Sequence record: PZ386948.1 | Source: a phage | Direction: 5' to 3' (one strand) | Length of the DNA stretch: 64,000 bases | In this document: positions 1,458 to 43,813 of the stretch, one piece after another | Layout: each line of letters begins with the position of its first letter | Position numbering within the stretch: the first letter of the stretch is position 1 | Position numbers and translations under genes: made by a program | Notes under the pieces: model-generated | Database searches by the model: none | What the model saw: only the letters and a program-made list of their open reading frames with translations | What the model was told of the DNA's origin: nothing

Positions 1458-1515
1458 AGATATTCCTTAGTTTATAGCCCGAGTTATTAGGCTCTTGATA
1501 TATTATACTCCAATT

Positions 1516-1533
1516 AAGGGGCCGAAGCCCCTT
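1516..1533 (-). terminator. UUCG-tetraloop hairpin (terminator or RNA-stability element) between regA and 43
   Basis: aaggggccgaagcccctt; minus-strand RNA forms GGGGC-UUCG-GCCCC. Confidence 0.5.
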
Positions 1534-1535
1534 GC

Positions 1536-1904
1536 TTAATTACCAATCGTATATTTAGGAACGAGTTTCCATTCATGTTTTTGTTTAAAAGAAATAACTC
1601 GGAAGTTATTAGTTAAATCTTTCATAAAAGTTCTTTGACCAGGAACGATTTCAATCAGTCCCCAATCTTCTAACAACCATGCAATCGAATCACGACGAAC
1701 TTCATCTTCTTCTGTCATTTCAACCTGGCGACCATCCATACGAAGCATTTCTTTAAAATGAACGATATAGTATAGTCCTTTTTTCTGAAGAATATGACAG
1801 GACTGATACAGAACTTTATCTTTATTATTAGCAATTCCCATACGAGTCAAAGTTTCTTTTACTTTCAGAAAATCTTCAGGTTTTTTAAGAGTAATTTCAA
1901 TCAT
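1536..1904 (-). CDS. regA: RegA translational repressor
   Basis: 122 aa ORF MIEITLKKPEDFLKVKETLTRMG... matches remembered T4 RegA in sequence and length. Confidence 0.9.
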   Translation of the reverse strand: MIEITLKKPEDFLKVKETLTRMGIANNKDKVLYQSCHILQKKGLYYIVHFKEMLRMDGRQVEMTEEDEVRRDSIAWLLEDWGLIEIVPGQRTFMKDLTNNFRVISFKQKHEWKLVPKYTIGN

Positions 1905-1905
1905 T

Positions 1906-2469
1906 TTACCATTCCAATGCTAGTTTTTTGAGTTGTTTCTGTTCTTTTACGTTCTTAGTCACTTCTTTCAAAAAATCATCCGTGACTAATCCTTTAAGTT
2001 CTTTTAATACTAAAGGTAGTTTTCCATTTTTAGTAAGAATTGATTTATAGTTAATTGCATCATTTGTATTAACTTGATAACGCTTAGCAAGTAACTTAAT
2101 AATCAATACTTCGGTGGAATCTTCAACTAGTTTTGCCCATTTACCATATCTTTTACCACGAGGAACTGCAGCCATTAGATAATTAAAATGAGCTTCATCA
2201 CTTAATCCAGAACCGATTAAATTCATAGCATATACAGCTGGCATGCACTCTGGAAATTGTGATAATGCATTTTCAACCATGAATTTTGAATAATCTTTTT
2301 GAGCAATAGAGCATTTAGTTTTATTATTAATAGCTCCAATTATTTCAAAAAACTCATTTTCAGCTTTTTCTTTAAAAGAATCAGCAGCGGATTGGACAGC
2401 CGTCCAATCTTTTGAATACCAAGCAACTTGATGCTCGTTTAATTGAATATCATCTTCAAATAAGCTCAT
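1906..2469 (-). CDS. 62: clamp-loader small subunit gp62
   Basis: ORF 1906-2490; start placed at internal Met (MSLFEDD...) to give the 187 aa of T4 gp62; position between regA and 44. Confidence 0.8.
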
Positions 2470-2470
2470 A

Positions 2471-3430
2471 TCACTTCCACTGCATTTCACATGCTAACTG
2501 AATGAAAAGATAAGCTAAATGCAATTCAGTATTAGCTGCAATACCATGATACTGATTATTTTCGCCGACAATTTCGTACATACGAATAATACTCTGTGGA
2601 GTTACACGTGAATAGATTTCTTCGGCAAGTTTACCCACGAACCACGAATAATCGGCTGCATATTTTGGTGCTAAAGCTCTGAGTTGTTTAACATCTTTAT
2701 TTTTGAGAGACTCAAGAACATCATCAATAGCACCACGATCGTTAGTAACCAGTGATAAAATACCAGCATCCAAAACACCTTTAGATGAATAACTATCGAG
2801 CTCGCCAATAGTTTTACGAAAATCAGGAAAATTCTTTTTAACCAAAGCTGCTACAACTTTCATATCAGCTATAGCAATTCCTTCATGCTTACAGATTTCA
2901 GTCAATCGACGAATCATCTGCTTCATCATTTCAATTTTATCTTCATCGGTCGGTTGACCGAACGTAATAACTCGGCAGCGTGACTGAAGTGGTTTAATAA
3001 TACCATCAATATTGTTAGCAGTAATAATAATACTACAGTTTGAACTATAAGCTTCCATAAAGGAACGAAGATGTCGCTGAGACTCTGCTAACCCTGAACG
3101 GTCAAATTCATCAATAACGATTACTTTTTGACGACCGTCAAATGAAGCTGCGCTGGCAAAATTAGTCAAAGGACCACGAACGAAATCAATTTTACAATCT
3201 GATCCATTCACAAACATCATATCAGCATTTACATCATGACACAATGCTTTCGCTACAGTTGTTTTACCTGTTCCTGGAGAAGGAGAATGAAGAATAATAT
3301 GTGGAATCTTACCTTTACTTGTAATAGATTTAAAGGTTTCTTTATCAAAGGCGGGAAGAATACATTCATCGATAGTAGATGGACGATATTTCTGTTCAAG
3401 AATGTGTTCTTTTTCATTTACGGTAATCAT
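2471..3430 (-). CDS. 44: clamp-loader ATPase gp44 (AAA+)
   Basis: Walker [11 protein letters not shown], Walker B VIVIDEFD; 319 aa from internal Met MITVNEK; T4 synteny. Confidence 0.9.
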
Positions 3431-3464
3431 AATTTCCTCATTCAAGTTTTAGTGTAAATTATAA

Positions 3465-3478
3465 AGGGCCGAAGCCCT
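3465..3478 (-). terminator. UUCG-tetraloop hairpin between 45 and 44
   Basis: agggccgaagccct. Confidence 0.5.
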
Positions 3479-3481
3479 CTA

Positions 3482-4168
3482 TTAAAAATCGTGGGTAGAA
3501 TCAGCTTCAAGAGCTACTACATAATTCGCATGTTCACCTTCAAATTTAGCAGCACCTTGTTTACCTTTTGCCCAGAGCAGAAGTTTATAATTTCCTGGTT
3601 GCATTTTCATATTTGCCATATTGATAATGAAATTAAATGTATTTTCACCATCATAATCACCAAGAGTCAAAGAATATTTAACACGGGTCAAAGCAGAATC
3701 TTCTACTTTATTAAAACCGTTAATTACGATTTTACCTTCTTTTACCGTGATAGCAATTGTATCAATTTGCAGACCACGAGATACACGCAACAGTTGTTGA
3801 AGGTCTTCAGCTTTAATTTCAGTAACAACAGATGCTACCGGGAATGGAATTGGTTTATTAGGAGCAACTACTGTACTCGGATCGGCTGCTGGCCAAAAAA
3901 TTGTTGAGCGGGCATCAGCAATTTTAATATTTCCATCTTCTGACTGGGAAATTTCTGCATCATCATTAACTAGCGACAGAATACCGAGAAAACCGTTCAA
4001 ATCGTAAATTGCTACATCAAAATCAATAACGTCAGAAATATTTGCTTCCGCATAAGTTGTACCATTAACTGCGCGAGTCATAATAAATTGACCGGATTTA
4101 AGCATAATACCGGAGTTAATAGTAGCGAAATTTTTAAGCAGAGCAGTAGTATCTTTAGACAGTTTCAT
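3482..4168 (-). CDS. 45: sliding clamp gp45
   Basis: 228 aa MKLSKDTTALLKNFATINSGIMLKSGQF... matches remembered T4 gp45. Confidence 0.93.
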   Translation of the reverse strand: MKLSKDTTALLKNFATINSGIMLKSGQFIMTRAVNGTTYAEANISDVIDFDVAIYDLNGFLGILSLVNDDAEISQSEDGNIKIADARSTIFWPAADPSTVVAPNKPIPFPVASVVTEIKAEDLQQLLRVSRGLQIDTIAITVKEGKIVINGFNKVEDSALTRVKYSLTLGDYDGENTFNFIINMANMKMQPGNYKLLLWAKGKQGAAKFEGEHANYVVALEADSTHDF

Positions 4169-4866: not shown

Positions 4867-6549
4867 TTAAACCATTACAGTAAATCGACCAACTTTCTTC
4901 ATTTGAAGATGCTGACCATATTCTTGCGGGTCATGGTCTTTATGTGAAATTATAAAAACATTAGTGTTTTTCATTGAATTTATAATATTAGCTACACCTT
5001 TAATACCTTCGGCATCAAATGACCCATCAAACACTTCATCGAGTATTAATGTACTAATACTAACACCAGATACAATAGAAGCAATATCACGCCAAGTAAA
5101 TAAAAGAGCAATATCAATTCGTGCTTTTTCACCTTCACTAAATGAAGCATAACTAAAATCTTCACGACCACGGGATTTAATTGTCTCATTAAATTCTTCA
5201 TCTAATGTAAACACATAATCCGCTTCCATTATTTTAAGATAATGGTTAATCTGCTTATTAAATAATGGAATGTACTTTTTAATAATAGCACCTTTAATAC
5301 CAGAATCTTTGAGCATATCAGTCAAAATTCCTCGGTGGTATTTTTCCATTACTAAATTAGTTTTTGTCTTAACAATTTTATCAAGTTCTTCTTGAAGCAG
5401 TGCTATTTCATCAGCATGGTCAATAAACTCAGAAGATGCTTTTTCTATAGCCGCTTTAACTTTTTTGGCTTTATCTACCGTCGTGATTAGAGATTGCTTT
5501 TTATTGCGAATATCATTTGCCAACGACTGTTGGGTTTTAATATTATCTCGGTATTCATCAACAAGAACTTTTAAATTATCACGATGTGTTGAAAGCTGTT
5601 CAAACGAATGCGTACATTCAGAAACTTTATCTTTAATTTTAGAAACAACTTTATCACCGGAACTCAATTGTGACAAACAGGTTGGACATAATCCACCTTC
5701 GTGATACATATTAATGACTTTATTATACGAGTCAATTTTTGATTTAATTAAAACTGCTTCTTGACCGATTTTATTAAATGCATCAGTCGGGTCTTCATCC
5801 AAAACAATATTAACTAATCTTTCGTTAGCTTCTTCTATTTCCGATTTTAGCGTTCTAGCTTCTTTTGCCAAATCATCATACATATTTTGCAGACGAGTAA
5901 GGTTGTCACCCGTTAATTTTTTCTGGCGTTCAACGTTATCATTATATATTTTAATTTGTTGGATAATACTATCTTTTTTAACATCAAGCACTTGGTTCTG
6001 CGAATTTAATTCACGTATTAGTGCTTTATTAAGCTTATCCATTTCAGCTAATGTTCCTACCTCAAGCAGGTCTTCCACAAGCTTTCTTCGCGCAGGGGTC
6101 GACAAACCCATGAAAGGGGTATACCCTGCTGTACCAAGGACAACAATCTGCTTGAAACTGGCATATGACATTCCGATAAGCTGTTCAAATTCTGCTTGGA
6201 AATCTTTACTGCTGGCAGATTCATTAAGACGTGTACCGTTAACGGTGATTTCGAAAACGTTTGGTTTTTGTCCTCTTTTGATATAGTACTTTTTCTCATC
6301 ATATTCCATCCACAGTTCAACTAAAAGTTCTTTCTTATTTGTGCTGTTTATTAATTGACCTTTCTTTACATCACGAAATGGTTTGCCAAAAAGCCCAAAT
6401 GTGATGGCTTCTAACATAGTAGACTTACCACCGCCATTTCGGCCAGTAATAAGAGTTTTTTGAACCTTATCTAATTGAATGTCAACTCCATTTTGACCAA
6501 CTGACATTATATTTTTATATTTTACTCTATTAAGTTTAAATGATTTCAT
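4867..6549 (-). CDS. 46: recombination endonuclease subunit gp46 (Rad50/SbcC-like ATPase)
   Basis: 560 aa; Walker A GRNGGGKST near N-terminus, long central coiled coil with CPTC zinc hook, C-terminal LILDEVFDGSFD signature region. Confidence 0.9.
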   Translation of the reverse strand: MKSFKLNRVKYKNIMSVGQNGVDIQLDKVQKTLITGRNGGGKSTMLEAITFGLFGKPFRDVKKGQLINSTNKKELLVELWMEYDEKKYYIKRGQKPNVFEITVNGTRLNESASSKDFQAEFEQLIGMSYASFKQIVVLGTAGYTPFMGLSTPARRKLVEDLLEVGTLAEMDKLNKALIRELNSQNQVLDVKKDSIIQQIKIYNDNVERQKKLTGDNLTRLQNMYDDLAKEARTLKSEIEEANERLVNIVLDEDPTDAFNKIGQEAVLIKSKIDSYNKVINMYHEGGLCPTCLSQLSSGDKVVSKIKDKVSECTHSFEQLSTHRDNLKVLVDEYRDNIKTQQSLANDIRNKKQSLITTVDKAKKVKAAIEKASSEFIDHADEIALLQEELDKIVKTKTNLVMEKYHRGILTDMLKDSGIKGAIIKKYIPLFNKQINHYLKIMEADYVFTLDEEFNETIKSRGREDFSYASFSEGEKARIDIALLFTWRDIASIVSGVSISTLILDEVFDGSFDAEGIKGVANIINSMKNTNVFIISHKDHDPQEYGQHLQMKKVGRFTVMV

Positions 6550-6564
6550 TTTGTATCCAATTGT

Positions 6565-7419
6565 TCACAATGAAGAAAATTCTTTAACTAAAGCCTGTAA
6601 TGAAGCCTCTATTGGATATCCATTCTTAACTAACATTTTCCTAAACATTACATGTTTAGGACGATTATATGATATCCACAATTCATACAATTTATCTTTA
6701 TTATCCCAATGATAGCCTTTTCGTCGAGATGCTATATGAGCTTTTCTAATCTCCGGATTTTTCCAACTAGCAGCTACTGAATTTGATATAGCTATTTTAT
6801 ATTCAGGTTTTGATAAAGCAGCACGAACAGCCTTTTGGTGTTTAATTTTATTTTCTTCGTTATTAAACCATTCCCTTGAAGCCATTGAAATTTTTTGTTT
6901 TGTTTTAAAATTATTTAATCTTTCTTTATTATCTTTCCTATTTTTTGCTACTGAAAAATATTTTAATGCCCTTTCTCTAGCAGCATTTCTATTTTGCGGA
7001 TTTGAATAATACTGTTGAAGCCTTTTTGATATTGTGTCACTTACATCTTGTTTTATAAAACTATATTCAGCAGCTATTAAATCAACTTCGGCTAAAGATA
7101 AATTTTTATATGTTTTTCCTGACATCATTCTATTTAAAGCATTTAGCATTTTTCCATTTTTACCTTTTGCTAATAAGAAGTGTGCTTTAAAATGATTAAA
7201 ATGACTTAAATTAACTAAATTCCATGTAGATTTTAAATATTCAGGAAATATTGATTTAGGAAGCACGTGGTGTGCTTCCGTTTTACCTGGAGTTTTAACA
7301 GTTGAATTCACAGAAATAAAATTAATGTAAGACTTGGCGTCTTCTTCACTCAACGCTAATTTTTCAACTAATTCCTTTATTAAAAATTCATCATTAATGT
7401 CAAGTTTAAAATTCTTCAC
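6565..7419 (-). CDS. HNH homing endonuclease (Mob-like)
   Basis: 284 aa; HNH motif EAHHVLPKS...NLVNLSHFNHFKAHFLL; C-terminal region resembles ORF 27295-28074; inserted between 46 and 47. Confidence 0.65.
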   Translation of the reverse strand: MKNFKLDINDEFLIKELVEKLALSEEDAKSYINFISVNSTVKTPGKTEAHHVLPKSIFPEYLKSTWNLVNLSHFNHFKAHFLLAKGKNGKMLNALNRMMSGKTYKNLSLAEVDLIAAEYSFIKQDVSDTISKRLQQYYSNPQNRNAARERALKYFSVAKNRKDNKERLNNFKTKQKISMASREWFNNEENKIKHQKAVRAALSKPEYKIAISNSVAASWKNPEIRKAHIASRRKGYHWDNKDKLYELWISYNRPKHVMFRKMLVKNGYPIEASLQALVKEFSSL

Positions 7420-7679
7420 AAAAGATTCCTTTTAATGTATCTTTTAGACCATTCTATCATATCATCATAATCTAAAAAGTATTCATCAAATTCAGCCATG
7501 CAAACAACGCCTTGTGCTGCTTTTGATGTGATATAAATTATTCCAACATATCTAGAATCTTCTTCGGTGTAATCAATATTTGCTATGAATTCATCATTAA
7601 TGTCAAATGTCGAAAACTTCACAGTATGCATCCTTAATACAAGATACAGCCATATCTCGTAATGATTTAGGTGTGTCAT
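7416..7679 (-). CDS. hypothetical protein
   Basis: 87 aa ORF, start overlaps next ORF; between 46 and 47. Confidence 0.4.
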   Translation of the reverse strand: MTHLNHYEIWLYLVLRMHTVKFSTFDINDEFIANIDYTEEDSRYVGIIYITSKAAQGVVCMAEFDEYFLDYDDMIEWSKRYIKRNLL

Positions 7680-7866
7680 TATCTAAAATGTTGAAGTTAA
7701 AAGATACAGCCCAGTCAGTGCAGACTGTAACCTTTTTAATACAATTATCTTCAACCTCTAGCGGTTCAAACCAATATTCAATAATTTCTTTATGACCAAT
7801 ATCATCTTTTACTTCGCATTCAAAATGCTGACTCATCATAACATTTTTAAATTCATCAAAAGTCAT
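7603..7866 (-). CDS. hypothetical protein
   Basis: 87 aa ORF whose stop overlaps gp47 start (ATGA-type coupling). Confidence 0.4.
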   Translation of the reverse strand: MTFDEFKNVMMSQHFECEVKDDIGHKEIIEYWFEPLEVEDNCIKKVTVCTDWAVSFNFNILDNDTPKSLRDMAVSCIKDAYCEVFDI

Positions 7867-8882
7867 TGTGTTGCCTCTACATATAGCTGATTCGCATATT
7901 GAATAAGTGCTTCACGGTCAGAATCAGTGATGTCTGGAATTGCATTAATGTATTCTTCCATCAACGTCTGAAGAGATTGAACTTCAACTTCTTCACTTTC
8001 ATCTGACTCGACAGAGTTATCAATTTTTGACACAACTCGTAATGAATGCACAACTTTTTCTAGTTCAGATTCGAACTTCGTCAGATTTTTGTCTACCTCA
8101 GTTACTATAACACGTACTGATAGATTTGTAAAATCTTTATAGTCAATTTTTCCTTTAAATGGATAATGAATTCTACGATGCCAGGTAGTATTGTTTGGAA
8201 TAAATTCCATTCGTTCTGTTTCTGTATCAAACATCCAGAACCCACGAGGGTCATTCTCGTCACCTGCAGTTAGTGTCCATGGTGTCCCAATATATCTGAC
8301 GTTAGCAGCCTCAGAGATAGTATGGAAGTGACCAGACCACACCTCTTTATAAGTCTTAAGGAAATCAGGTTCAAGACCGTGAGATTTCATTCCTTTATAA
8401 AAATAAAATCCATTCAGCTCCCAGTGACCAACACAAAAAGAAGCAGATGAAGTTTTGATGTGTTCAAGAATTTCACCAGTATTTTCTTCACACATCCAAG
8501 GAATTAAATCAATCAAACATCCGTCAAAATCTACTGTAGTAGGCTTATCATACACTTTAACATTAGGATATTTAGCCAAAAGCTCAGTAGAGGCATTTGG
8601 AGTTAAAGTATTTTTAAAGTGCATATCATGGTTTCCTACAACAGTATGTAGGGTAATACCAGCATCATCAAGCATTTGAACTATTTCACGAGCGAACTCC
8701 ATAGTTTTATGTGTGATTGCTTTTCGCACATCAAAAATATCACCATATTGAATCCATACAGTAATTCCATTTTTCTTAGAATATTCTATCGCTTGCTTAA
8801 TTCCATCAATTTGAATACCGCGAATCCACTCATCATCGGCTTTAACGCCTAAATGCCAATCACCTAAATTTAAAATTTTCAT
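7863..8882 (-). CDS. 47: recombination endonuclease subunit gp47 (Mre11/SbcD-like)
   Basis: 339 aa; calcineurin-like phosphoesterase motifs LGDWHLG, GDIFD, GNHD, GHWE, GHFH. Confidence 0.9.
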   Translation of the reverse strand: MKILNLGDWHLGVKADDEWIRGIQIDGIKQAIEYSKKNGITVWIQYGDIFDVRKAITHKTMEFAREIVQMLDDAGITLHTVVGNHDMHFKNTLTPNASTELLAKYPNVKVYDKPTTVDFDGCLIDLIPWMCEENTGEILEHIKTSSASFCVGHWELNGFYFYKGMKSHGLEPDFLKTYKEVWSGHFHTISEAANVRYIGTPWTLTAGDENDPRGFWMFDTETERMEFIPNNTTWHRRIHYPFKGKIDYKDFTNLSVRVIVTEVDKNLTKFESELEKVVHSLRVVSKIDNSVESDESEEVEVQSLQTLMEEYINAIPDITDSDREALIQYANQLYVEATQ

Positions 8883-26300: not shown

Positions 26301-27347
26301 TCATTTATAATAACTTCGGTGGTTTTCAAGATAAACCCTCTCAAGGAAGTCATCCCAAAAACCCATGTCTACTTTTTGCTGCATACCGTTCTTAGAAGCT
26401 TCAGTAGATGCTGCTTCTACTTGATCGACCACATCTTCCAAAAACTCTTGAACCGTTTTAAATGGATGTTTACCCAACTTCACGTCGAGAATAAATGGAG
26501 CATCTTGGAGTGGATAAACCAAGTCACCAGTTTTGTAAATTTCCAATAGTTGGAGTCCACCACGGCAAGCATGACTCATAGCTTTCCAGTCAATACCTTC
26601 ATTGGCTTCGGCCTTACGAGCACGTTCACCGTATTCAGCATCTAATTTGTTCAGTGACTGCTTAAGCTCAATAAGAGAAAGCGTTGTCTGATATTTACGA
26701 CCCAACACTGTGTAAAACGTCTGTGGGCCTGTTTTCTCATGATTATGGAACACCCATTCACAGAATTCGTTTTCTGGAAGACGATGCTTAATATCTTCAA
26801 CTTTAGTACGACGCTGCTTAATGGAACCGTCTTCTTGGTAATCAACCCATTGCTCAGGGATTTGATTAACTACTTTCAATACATCGCGTAATGCAGCCAA
26901 ACGAGAACCCTTAACGCCGTATTTAGAAGCTTGCTTACGGACATATCCTAAATAGGATTTCATGTTAGTCGTATAAAAACGAGAACGGTTGTCTTGAATA
27001 AACTTCCACACATCAGGCAAATCAGATTTAACCACTAACTCAGGTGGAGTGTGAAGCATATCTAACGCTACAGTTTCACCATCTGCTGCTAATTTAAAGA
27101 AATATTTAAGACTATACAATTCGTGGTCAATATCATCTTTAGTGTTTTTAGATGATGTGTTGTTAGTGTTTTTACTCATATGCTCTTTAACATTTCCGAT
27201 AAGAATATCGCGAGCAGGAGGAACAAAAATTTCTTTAAAATCTACATCAGATTCTGGAGTAGAAGTTCCATAAAGATGACTACCAAAATAAGACTTAACT
27301 ACAGTTTTCATTATTAGACCTTTCATAATCTTCATTAAATTGTACAA
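26301..27347 (-). CDS. nucleotidyltransferase-fold protein (predicted)
   Basis: GS...D.D signature FGSHLYGTSTPESDVDF near N-terminus; start codon ambiguous (27347, 27332 or 27311). Confidence 0.55.
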   Translation of the reverse strand: MYNLMKIMKGLIMKTVVKSYFGSHLYGTSTPESDVDFKEIFVPPARDILIGNVKEHMSKNTNNTSSKNTKDDIDHELYSLKYFFKLAADGETVALDMLHTPPELVVKSDLPDVWKFIQDNRSRFYTTNMKSYLGYVRKQASKYGVKGSRLAALRDVLKVVNQIPEQWVDYQEDGSIKQRRTKVEDIKHRLPENEFCEWVFHNHEKTGPQTFYTVLGRKYQTTLSLIELKQSLNKLDAEYGERARKAEANEGIDWKAMSHACRGGLQLLEIYKTGDLVYPLQDAPFILDVKLGKHPFKTVQEFLEDVVDQVEAASTEASKNGMQQKVDMGFWDDFLERVYLENHRSYYK

Positions 27348-28074
27348 TCAATCGATGATAATTAGATTTTGGATATCCTAATTTACTTATATAAGTTCCG
27401 AATGACCCACGTTTAGGTCTATTTAATTTAATCCATAACTTATAAAGTAAGTCATAGTCTTGCCAATGTTTACCAGTTCTTTGTCTAATTTTAGATGAAT
27501 TTGATTGTTTCTTTTTAGTTTCAAAATTATTCAAAGATTTTTTGACTGCAGCAGAGTGTTTTTCTTTAACTCCCGGTCGTTTAAAAGCAGCTTTCACCCC
27601 TTTAGATATTTTTTCTTTAACTTCCGGTTTGTTTTGTGCTTCTAACTGGGATTCTGAAATTTTAGCCCTTATTTCAGGAAGACTTAATGTTATCGAACGT
27701 TTTTCTCTGTATTCATTAGACTTCCACATTTCTTTCATTGTATTAGAATGTATTTTTGAAAATTTTTCTCTAACTAACTGATATCCTCTTGAAGTTAATT
27801 TGAGATTTCTTCCTAAAGAATCTTCTCCAAAATTATAAAATGACCACCATGCATAAATTAATCCAGGCGAATTATAATGAATTTTAGCTAAAAGCCAATG
27901 GGCTATAAAATGCTCTCTAGCTGTTAATAAAACTAGATTATCAGAATCATCATTACCACCAATACAAGATGGAATAATATGATGCTTTTCCGTATAAAAA
28001 TTTAATTTAGATTTATCTAATTTTCTGAGTTTTCCTTTCTTAATTAAATTATTATATACTTTAGTATAATTCAT
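27295..28074 (-). CDS. HNH homing endonuclease (MobD-like)
   Basis: 259 aa; HNH motif EKHHIIPSCIGG...NLVLLTAREHFIAHWLL; C-terminus resembles ORF 6565-7419. Confidence 0.7.
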   Translation of the reverse strand: MNYTKVYNNLIKKGKLRKLDKSKLNFYTEKHHIIPSCIGGNDDSDNLVLLTAREHFIAHWLLAKIHYNSPGLIYAWWSFYNFGEDSLGRNLKLTSRGYQLVREKFSKIHSNTMKEMWKSNEYREKRSITLSLPEIRAKISESQLEAQNKPEVKEKISKGVKAAFKRPGVKEKHSAAVKKSLNNFETKKKQSNSSKIRQRTGKHWQDYDLLYKLWIKLNRPKRGSFGTYISKLGYPKSNYHRLIVQFNEDYERSNNENCS

Positions 28075-41920: not shown

Positions 41921-41996
41921 TGGTCGAGGCAGTAGGGATCGAACCTACGACCTAGGACTTAGAAGGTCCTTGCTCTTCCTTCTGAGCTATGCCCCG
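41921..41996 (-). tRNA. tRNA-Arg (anticodon UCU)
   Basis: Minus-strand cloverleaf read by eye: anticodon arm AGGAC-CUUCUAA-GUCCU, T-arm GUAGG-UUCGAUC-CCUAC, encoded CCA. Confidence 0.8.
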
Positions 41997-42000
41997 TAAT

Positions 42001-42087
42001 TGGGGTGACCGATGGGAGTCGAACCACCCGAGTCGCAATGACAATGGATTTACAGTCCACACCGCTACCTCTACGGGATAACTCCCC
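42001..42087 (-). other. tRNA-like element, non-canonical (possible degenerate tRNA or small stable RNA)
   Basis: Has GGUUCGA T-loop-like motif, anticodon-like arm with GUA in loop and 3' CCA, but acceptor and T stems do not pair canonically by eye. Confidence 0.3.
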
Positions 42088-42100
42088 TTAATTCTTAATT

Positions 42101-42175
42101 TGGTGGCCCTGGGTGGAATTGAACCACCATCTGGCGATTATGAGTCGCTTGCTTGAACCTTCCAGCTACAGGGCC
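42101..42175 (-). tRNA. tRNA with CAU anticodon (Ile2-type or Met)
   Basis: Acceptor GGCCCUG/CAGGGCC, anticodon loop CUCAUAA, T-loop UUCAAUU, CCA encoded. Confidence 0.8.
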
Positions 42176-42176
42176 T

Positions 42177-42252
42177 TGGTGCTGATTGACGGAATCGAAC
42201 CGCCGACCTTCTCATTACAAGTGAGTTGCTCTACCTACTGAGCTAAATCAGC
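42177..42252 (-). tRNA. tRNA-Thr (anticodon UGU)
   Basis: Acceptor GCUGAUU/AAUCAGC, anticodon loop CUUGUAA, T-arm GGCGGUUCGAUUCCGUC. Confidence 0.8.
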
Positions 42253-42257
42253 AAAAC

Positions 42258-42347
42258 TGGCGGAGGCGATAGGATTTGAACCTATGAGTCGCCGGAGCGA
42301 CTGCCGGTTTTCAAGACCGGTGCATTAAACCACTCTGCCACGCCTCC
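42258..42347 (-). tRNA. tRNA-Ser (anticodon UGA)
   Basis: 90 nt type-II tRNA; reverse complement matches remembered T4 tRNA-Ser (GGAGGCGUGGCAGAGUGG...). Confidence 0.9.
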
Positions 42348-42353
42348 AAATAT

Positions 42354-43004
42354 TTATATATTGTTAATTTGATTTAGAATTCTTTTTGCTTGAGTATGAC
42401 TTACGCCAATATGCTTAGCATATTTAGACAATTCGCCACGTTTAGAAAAATCATATAATTTAGAAATTTCTATTCTTCTTTTTCTTTCATCCGCAGAAAC
42501 TTTTGCTTCGTTTGCTTTTGCTATTTTACGTTTAGCTTCTTGAGAATGAGTTTTACCAGCAAAGCCATTCTTCATTAATCCATTTGAAGACCATCCTTTT
42601 AATTTTCCGTTAGAATGTGCCTTTTTAACACCCAATGAAATTAATTCGCGTTGCTGATCTGTCATAGGATAATTATTTATATGATCCCATCCACCTTCAC
42701 CTCCAAGTTTTAAATTATACACATCTGGTCTATTTAAAAACTCTTCTGTGACAATATTTTTCTCGGCTTCAAGCATAGATTCTTTATCGTCAAAATACTC
42801 TAATATTTCTTTAGAAAAATTTTCTATACCATATTTATCTTGGGCTCTTTTTAATAATTTACCAGAACCCATATATCCATCATCTAAATTTTCGGTAGAA
42901 TGCACACCAATATAAATTTTATTATTAATTTTATTTGTTATTTTATAAAGATAAAAATGCATATCAGTCCCTAATAAAGAACTGAGCGTCTCACGACGAG
43001 TCAT
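42354..43004 (-). CDS. GIY-YIG homing endonuclease (SegB-like)
   Basis: 216 aa; GIY-YIG core YLYKITNKINNKIYIGV; C-terminal HTH-like tail; embedded between tRNA-Ser and tRNA-Gly. Confidence 0.75.
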   Translation of the reverse strand: MTRRETLSSLLGTDMHFYLYKITNKINNKIYIGVHSTENLDDGYMGSGKLLKRAQDKYGIENFSKEILEYFDDKESMLEAEKNIVTEEFLNRPDVYNLKLGGEGGWDHINNYPMTDQQRELISLGVKKAHSNGKLKGWSSNGLMKNGFAGKTHSQEAKRKIAKANEAKVSADERKRRIEISKLYDFSKRGELSKYAKHIGVSHTQAKRILNQINNI

Positions 43005-43008
43005 AAAT

Positions 43009-43082
<74 letters not shown>

Positions 43083-43087
43083 AAATT

Positions 43088-43174
43088 TGGTGCGAGAAGT
43101 GGGACTCGAACCCACAAGGAAATCATTCCGCAGCATTTTAAGTGCTGTGCCTTTACCAATTTGACCATTCTCGC
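43088..43174 (-). tRNA. tRNA-Leu (anticodon UAA)
   Basis: 87 nt type-II tRNA; reverse complement matches remembered T4 tRNA-Leu (GCGAGAAUGGUCAAAUUGG...). Confidence 0.9.
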
Positions 43175-43180
43175 GCTATA

Positions 43181-43813
43181 TTATTTATTACGTGAAAAAG
43201 ACTGTTCTATCAATTCTGGACACTTTCGTTCTATCCATTTTCTAGCTTTTTGTGGGCTTATACCTATTATTTTAGCAGCTTTACTAACCCATCCAAATTT
43301 AGAATAATCGATTTTAACTAATTCTTCGTAAATTTCATCAGTTAAAATCTTTTCATTAATATTTACCAGTAAATGATATAATTTATTATCATTAGCAATT
43401 TTAATGAATCTTTTATAGTTTCCGCCTTTACTTAAACCTAATGAAGTAATTGCAGATGATATAGTAGCCGAATTTAATAGTGCGTTTAAAATTTCTTCAT
43501 CACTAACATTATAACGCTTTTTATTATTTTTAATATTTTTACCAGCAAAAGTATCAGTTTGCGAATGGCAGTTTGGACATAATAATCTTAAATTTGATTT
43601 AAGATGATTTTTGTTATTTCCATCAATATGGTCTAATTGCAGAACAATATGCTTATTTTGCCATTTTGAAATTTTACAAATTGCACACTCATATGGAAAA
43701 ATATTTTCTTTTATTATTTTGTCTTTCAGCTTTCCTGTACTAAAATTTGGATGTTTTCCTTCAAAAATTTCAGCTAATTTAGTATCCATAATATGATTCC
43801 CAATTATTAACAA
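43181..43813 (-). CDS. HNH homing endonuclease with zinc-finger and C-terminal HTH-like tail
   Basis: 210 aa; CAIC...HIDGNNKNH...NLRLLCPNCH; abuts tRNA-Leu. Confidence 0.7.
   Translation of the reverse strand: MLIIGNHIMDTKLAEIFEGKHPNFSTGKLKDKIIKENIFPYECAICKISKWQNKHIVLQLDHIDGNNKNHLKSNLRLLCPNCHSQTDTFAGKNIKNNKKRYNVSDEEILNALLNSATISSAITSLGLSKGGNYKRFIKIANDNKLYHLLVNINEKILTDEIYEELVKIDYSKFGWVSKAAKIIGISPQKARKWIERKCPELIEQSFSRNK

Follow-up and report, generated by a model that had tools for sequence, protein, structure and literature searches.

Free-standing homing endonuclease genes (HEGs) are a cause of mosaicism and of localised marker exclusion in T-even phages. T4 mobA, between genes 60 and 39, is a HEG that splits its host gene, and this gene stays functional. 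Among HNH Mob-type genes, activity is shown only for mobE in the literature that we searched. The nick made by T4 MobE maps about 120 nt inside the adjacent gene nrdB, in a region whose polymorphisms separate mobE+ from mobE- phages (PMC2790892); the strand-specific nick and trans-homing have both been demonstrated, with co-conversion of flanking sequence (PMC2790892).

The window analysed here, a 64,000-nt stretch of sequence record PZ386948.1, is 100% identical to Shigella phage CM8 (Tequatrovirus), such that window position p corresponds to CM8 position p + 25802. Its recombination operon contains the 284-aa ORF that an earlier note on this DNA had reported and that we confirmed (Table 1), labelled 'homing endonuclease' in the RefSeq record of CM8. 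The note had placed this HNH ORF between genes 46 and 47, which is right for the operon, whose minus-strand order is 47 > 46.2 > 46.1 > HNH ORF > 46, but not for its direct neighbours: these are 46.1 and 46, and 46.1 and 46.2 separate it from 47. It had also regarded the ORF as an insertion relative to T4. Indeed, the site is empty and exactly collinear in T4 and in about 440 further Tequatrovirus records; when we checked T4 for the same ORF at this position we found it absent, the 46.1 stop and the gene 46 start overlapping there as GTGA. The main reading of the note, a free-standing HNH homing-endonuclease gene paralogous to MobD, is likewise supported, with the insertion point lying inside the first codons of gene 46. 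The ORF is free-standing in that it is sited between 46.1 and 46, that we found no intron or intein features and that a replacement start restores gene 46. Two annotations of neighbouring genes deserve mention: 46.2 is called 'hemolysin XhlA' in the T6 record, and gene 46 is annotated from Met15 (locus position 1543) in RB10, RB27, RB18 and Nami despite an intact GTG and GTGA overlap, which is an annotation inconsistency.

Table 1. Features of the gene 46 locus, other homing endonuclease ORFs of the window, and gene 46 haplotypes
Feature	Position	Strand	Description
Gene 47	7863-8882	-	
46.2	7603-7866	-	
Gene 46.1 (DUF5487)	7416..7622 as annotated	-	Intact; Pfam DUF5487 2e-48; stop overlaps HNH start
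46.1 copy of 19-nt repeat	7588..7606	-	Resident copy; T4 has it too
HNH (Mob-like) homing endonuclease ORF	6565..7419	-	284 aa; GTG start; uninterrupted reading frame
Borrowed start	7402..7419	-	GTGAAGAATTTTAAACTT (MKNFKL); identical to first 18 nt of empty-site gene 46
19-nt stretch	7385..7403	-	TTGACATTAATGATGAATT (DINDEF); ORF nt 17-35; identical to 46.1 codons 9-15
C-terminal region shared with MobD	aa ~235-282 of HNH ORF		
870-bp insertion relative to T4-type empty sites	6532..7401	-	Alignment placed it at 6541-7410
Replacement gene 46 start	6532..6564	-	Spacer of 12-15 nt, weak GGA Shine-Dalgarno, then ATGAAATCATTTAAACTT (MKSFKL)
Gene 46 (gp46, Rad50/SbcC-like recombination nuclease subunit)	4867..6549	-	5' end invaded by cassette
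HEG-linked hypervariable tract	6484..6540	-	Gene 46 codons ~4-22; carriers YKNIMSVGQNGV, common empty allele YQNIMSVGGNPI
Carrier haplotype, Tequatrovirus	gp46 residues 11-22		YKNIMSVGQNGV; 72 records; cassette present
Type A empty haplotype (T4-like)	gp46 residues 11-22		YKNIMSVGQNGI; about 75-84 records
Type B empty haplotype	gp46 residues 11-22		YQNIMSVGGNPI; about 360 records
tRNA cluster	41921-43174		6 tRNAs
GIY-YIG SegB-like ORF	42354-43004		Pfam GIY-YIG 6e-6
Cys-rich HNH ORF	43181-43813		Separate from GIY-YIG SegB-like ORF

The HNH ORF is an annotated member of a known Mob-like HNH type, an ordinary element of predicted activity. It matches PHROG 655 ('homing endonuclease') at 8e-45, and the closest T4 paralogue type is MobC (36% identity over aa 10-236, E 2e-22). 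Its catalytic motif reads E48-x-H50-H51 ... N67 ... H76 ... H80; when it was aligned with sets of 7 and 42 relatives, H50, H51 and H76 were invariant, and N67 and H80 were invariant or at least 90% conserved (43 relatives). All five motif residues are intact in the ORF and conserved across relatives of 25-45% identity. The AF2 model (pLDDT 84; 87.5 for the N-terminal 105 aa alone) has beta strands at 47-51 and 68-72 and a helix at 73-86, with residues 47-86 at pLDDT >90, followed by long helices; this beta-beta-alpha order is that expected of a beta-beta-alpha-metal finger. Since fold searches with both AF2 models gave only non-specific helical matches, the His-Me fold is read from the motif and predicted secondary structure only. 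A sequence-profile search of the PDB found no relative, and a TPR-like match there (E 0.03) was dismissed as spurious.

Three similar helical, NUMOD3-like repeats of ~26 aa were evident in the central region by eye and in the AF2 model, with no Pfam match. In the ORF itself the Pfam HNH domain was not matched even at E<=1, NUMOD3 was also below threshold, and an NCBIfam scan returned no significant family. Among its relatives, weak Pfam HNH matches occur in only 7 of 43 (best 0.0011), NUMOD3 in 23 of 43 (best 1e-27) and I-HmuI_NUMOD-like in 3 of 43, and MobD scores 18.2 bits against Pfam HNH, for which the cut-off is 21.4. The HNH assignment is accordingly based on the PHROG 655 match and the conserved HH...N...H...H motif, the Pfam threshold not being reached. 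The codons for the catalytic T-E-A-H-H-V-L-P coincide exactly with a perfect 8-bp hairpin of the minus-strand mRNA, GGAAGCAC-ACCAC-GUGCUUCC at 7259-7279 (-15.6 kcal/mol; z -4.0 versus shuffles).

Other HEGs of the window had been listed in the earlier note. The ORF at 27295-28074, described there as MobD-like, is MobD itself (258 of 259 residues identical to T4 MobD; PHROG 655 at 1e-56), so that the description was correct but understated. Its resemblance to the HNH ORF had been confined to the C-terminal region; the homology is real (30% identity, E 1e-18), but it extends over aa 47-281, from the HNH motif to the C-terminus. The genome therefore does carry at least two paralogous free-standing HNH ORFs, the two being homologous and both in PHROG 655. 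Of the two HNH genes assigned to the tRNA cluster, one (43181-43813) is an HNH gene, and the second turned out to be the GIY-YIG SegB-like ORF.

The cassette lies inside gene 46, takes its translation start and brings a replacement. We aligned 8 carriers with 15 empty-site sequences (T4, 8 further phage records and 6 IMG/VR contigs) and found the same gap of exactly 870 bp in every one of the 15; as TTTAAACTT stands at both ends, the boundaries can be shifted by up to 9 bp. At its upstream end the HNH ORF is fused in frame to the original Shine-Dalgarno, GTG and six codons of gene 46, and what is borrowed extends to the AAGGA Shine-Dalgarno upstream and to the GTGA in which this start and the 46.1 stop overlap. 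The HNH start is thus placed as the gene 46 start is in T4, and the ORF is therefore positioned to be translated in like manner, coupled to 46.1 via GTGA. The 3' end of the cassette restores gene 46 by a new ATG and five codons, and the replacement ATGAAATCATTTAAA start is a sequence present in Mosigvirus RB69. The HNH ORF also contains, at nt 17-35, the 19-nt stretch shared with 46.1, of which there are two copies only in the 64 kb (0.03 expected); it is contained in a 45-nt in-register repeat (7376-7420 versus 7579-7623) of 78% identity.

No late promoter (TATAAATA) was found near the HNH ORF in the several kb scanned, and the ORF therefore probably rides on the 47-46 operon transcript. Sigma-70-like sites were no more frequent than in shuffled sequence, and predicted RNA structure over the HNH start and the new gene 46 start did not depart from shuffled sequence (z -0.1 and +0.2, respectively). 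A role for the 19-nt TTGACA... repeat as the -35 box of a promoter was considered and rejected; candidate -10 elements downstream were poor, and a recombination origin better explains a repeat that is in frame and in register.

Taken together, these comparisons make it likely, in our judgement, that a free-standing T4 Mob-type HEG, with an HNH domain and NUMOD3-like repeats, is carried on an 870-bp cassette in gene 46 and homes in the manner proposed below.

The site is strictly dimorphic, with presence or absence at one precise position among close relatives. Carriers make up 72 of ~518 Tequatrovirus records (~14%, about one in seven), with an identical 870-bp insertion, at least 95% protein identity and all in the same context. 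A published survey lists one 'other HNH' each for T2, T6 and RB51 (Petrov et al. 2010, PMC2993671, Table 5), which is probably the HNH ORF at gene 46; our literature search found no paper on its activity, cleavage, homing or position at gene 46. An IMG/VR scan with the HNH protein yielded no confirmed locus, and one with 46.1 yielded 7 loci only, every one an empty site.

Copies in T6, CM8, P8 and BCPSen003 are intact. The T2 copy is frameshifted by a 2-bp deletion, those of RB51, RB68 and Ac3 by a shared 1-bp deletion and that of MLP2 by a different 1-bp deletion; beside these three mapped frameshift sites there is a fourth record, G2133, whose HNH match falls in two pieces. As 13 of the 72 records carry frameshifted copies, HNH activity is dispensable. 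The HNH gene could be regarded as an inactive relic, a once-mobile HEG that no longer cuts and that persists in CM8 only through linkage and its embedding in the essential 47-46 operon. We regard this as improbable. Frameshifted copies do persist in viable laboratory phages (T2, RB51), the protein is sub-threshold for Pfam HNH, and removal of the cassette needs a precise event because it supplies the gene 46 start codon; against this, the motif is intact and conserved among distant relatives as described above, in 59 of the 72 records a single unbroken match covers at least 80% of the protein, and the changes in the ORF among 7 carriers are 12 synonymous to 6 non-synonymous, half of the latter falling in the frameshifted T2 copy.

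Two side observations concern the locus. In Enterobacteria phage Ac3 (OK040907.1), locus 1501-3851 is ~25% diverged from the HNH start (GTG -> GTT) through gene 46, with changes that resemble synonymous codon recoding, and Ac3 matches RB51 outside this segment; the segment could be engineered or an assembly artefact. Tequatrovirus genomes otherwise 97-99% identical also carry mosaic blocks with two haplotypes, 10-14% diverged, at 8520-8819 (gene 47) and 6020-6219 (gene 46), showing no correlation with the presence of the HNH cassette.

Two other genera have homologues of ~44% identity in this slot, directly upstream of gene 46: Gelderlandvirus (SEA1 and Melville among them; 5 of 16 records carry one) and Mosigvirus (F2, SQ17, phiEC1; 10 of ~155 records). 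The homologous ORF of Mosigvirus F2 stands in place of 46.1 and starts with the first 7 codons of RB69 46.1 (MTKTDYE). F2 also has a second annotated homing endonuclease directly 3' of gene 46 (locus 4976-5692, opposite strand), and gene 46 therefore has HEGs on both sides there. The Gelderlandvirus 47-46 interval was found in three allelic forms, occupied by the HNH gene in one and by a small 46.1-like ORF in another, and empty in the third, where 47 overlaps 46 (loci examined: STML-198 locus 1090-1093 and S16 locus 1090-1296).

In-register microhomology recombination between two alleles appears to be the best explanation of the Tequatrovirus architecture. The ancestral Tequatrovirus allele would have been a HEG replacing 46.1 after about 15 codons ('46.1(1-15)::HNH'), comparable to F2, where replacement occurs after 7 codons; in-register microhomology exchange with an empty allele at GTGAAG...TT would then have given the present arrangement, in which 46.1 is intact.

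Immediately downstream of the insertion, the first codons of gene 46 vary with the presence of the HEG. Type B empty alleles (RB10 and RB27, for example) differ from carriers by 15 substitutions in the 48 bp from the exact insertion point and match afterwards; type A alleles are set apart only by GGGATT in place of GGAGTT and by the first 9 nt. T4 therefore has a carrier-type tract and no HNH gene. The same break recurs in the other genera when carriers are compared with empty alleles. In Tequatrovirus, nucleotide identity between carriers and the common empty allele is 43/57 over codons 4-22 and 53/54 over codons 23-40; comparison with the empty alleles of their own genus gives 45/57 and 50-51/54 for Mosigvirus carriers, and 32-35/57 and 52-54/54 for Gelderlandvirus carriers. 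The SEA1 tract is nearer to CM8 (47/57) than to its own genus. Empty alleles elsewhere encode a type-B-like peptide (YQNIMSVGGNPI in RB69 and JS09; YQNIMSVGGSPI in S16, STP4-a and STML-198), and carriers of the other genera have Q19 and a residue other than Q at position 12 (YKNIMSVGQNFI in F2 and SQ17; YSNIMSVGQVPI in SEA1 and Melville).

The break at codon 22/23 is thus common to three genera, and a sharp shared boundary of this kind is the pattern expected of co-conversion from an insertion site to a nearby cleavage site; the tract over codons ~4-22 probably marks the target and immunity region. MobE offers a parallel, its mapped nick in nrdB likewise falling in a stretch that is polymorphic between phages with and without the HEG. 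An ordinary mosaic block is in principle another possible reading of the tract, with the HNH ORF an ordinary mosaic gene that moves by general or illegitimate recombination without cutting a target, leaving the tract as a recombination joint. T-even genomes are highly mosaic, with 10-14% diverged blocks elsewhere in genes 47 and 46, and the chimeric N-terminus shows that illegitimate recombination occurred at the gene 46 site. We nonetheless think this account very unlikely: the same HNH lineage, slot and right-hand boundary recur in three genera, the tract is 21-44% diverged over 57 nt beside sequence of 93-100% identity, far above ordinary mosaic blocks, and the protein is homologous to Mob HEGs, among them MobE with its proven function.

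Domestication for a phage function instead of self-propagation, such as excluding co-infecting relatives or aiding gp46/gp47 DNA processing, has next to no credence with us: co-transcription and translational coupling with the recombination nuclease genes would suit it, as would the marker exclusion caused by T-even HEGs (PMC2993671) and the aid that SegB gives to immune evasion (PMC13096335), but the gene is in only ~14% of Tequatrovirus records and is dispensable, as its frameshifts in T2 and RB51 show, we found no domain beyond HEG architecture, and exclusion does not compete with homing as a mechanism but results from it. The conserved motif, the prevalence of intact copies, the slot shared across genera and the common boundary weigh against each of the three alternatives (relic, mosaic gene and domesticated nuclease).

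Homing of a Mob-type HEG, the reading that we favour, would proceed as follows. The HNH gene would be expressed from the 47-46 operon, its translation coupled to that of 46.1. In a mixed infection the enzyme would nick or cut a HEG-less gene 46 at codons ~12-22, some 35-65 bp past the insertion point, and recombinational repair off the carrier genome would carry over the cassette along with the first ~22 codons of gene 46, the changes within the tract rendering the carrier immune. The cleavage-sensitive empty allele could be the common type B or the T4 type. The same HEG lineage would have homed in this way in three genera. The T4-type allele may be a convertant for the tract only, or recombination between the TTTAAACTT repeats on either side may have removed its cassette.

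A wider reading, which we advance tentatively and with somewhat less than even confidence, is that one HNH lineage spread into the slot upstream of gene 46 of at least three Tevenvirinae genera by repeated 'start-hijack', travelling with a ~22-codon immunity tract, and that the 5' end of T4 gene 46 is a scar of it. If true, each HEG was fused to the start and first codons of the gene that it displaced, gene 46 in Tequatrovirus and 46.1 in Mosigvirus, and the ~22-codon tract encodes an altered yet functional gp46 N-terminus that confers immunity. T4 would then have an immune, HEG-less allele, and the natural target would be the common 'YQNIMSVGG(N/S)PIDI' allele.

What we add to the existing annotation is the borrowed start, the same slot in other genera and the linked gene 46 tract. 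Useful and testable as they are, the start-hijack architecture and the cross-genus linked tract do not reveal a new kind of system. Some of the differences in sequence between T2, T4 and T6 at gene 46 are explained by the cassette. The element lends itself to study as a clean natural system: T6 and CM8 have it intact, T2 and RB51 have natural frameshifts, and three gene 46 alleles (carrier, T4-type and common type) can be compared. Its predicted target is a stretch of ~50 bp in the gene for a Rad50-like nuclease, which may itself help to process homing breaks. It is thus suited to testing target choice by Mob-type enzymes, the immunity substitutions tolerated in an essential protein, and borrowed translation signals.

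Among described systems, I-HmuI of SPO1, an HNH endonuclease with NUMOD-like DNA-binding modules, resembles the predicted two-part architecture of the HNH ORF, an HNH domain with extended helical DNA-binding modules; I-HmuI is intron-encoded, however, and the HNH ORF gave no significant PDB sequence or fold-search match. MobC and MobD of T4, whose activity is putative, are like it over most of its length, free-standing between conserved genes and sporadic in distribution. They share with it the N-terminal E-x-HH...N...H...AH motif and lysine-rich helical repeats, and MobD also shares the C-terminal W-x-n-LY-x-W-I...P module. The HNH ORF differs from both in its locus between 46.1 and 46, presumably in its target, and in a unique chimeric N-terminus made of gene 46 and 46.1 codons.

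MobE, like the HNH ORF, is encoded by a free-standing HNH HEG between the subunit genes of one enzyme (nrdA/nrdB there, 47/46 here), although the activity of MobE is demonstrated and that of the HNH ORF only inferred. The two also differ in expression: mobE is limited by an internal terminator in its coding region (PMC2790892), whereas the HNH ORF uses the translation start of its host gene. In Aeh1, mobE is reported to be inserted in the coding sequence of a conserved gene, nrdA, which is still functional (PMC3045599), much as the HNH ORF is inserted in gene 46. Unlike the host genes of mobA and Aeh1 mobE, gene 46 is not divided between two polypeptides. The duplication is limited to its first six codons, of which one copy is donated to the HEG and a replacement copy restores gene 46.
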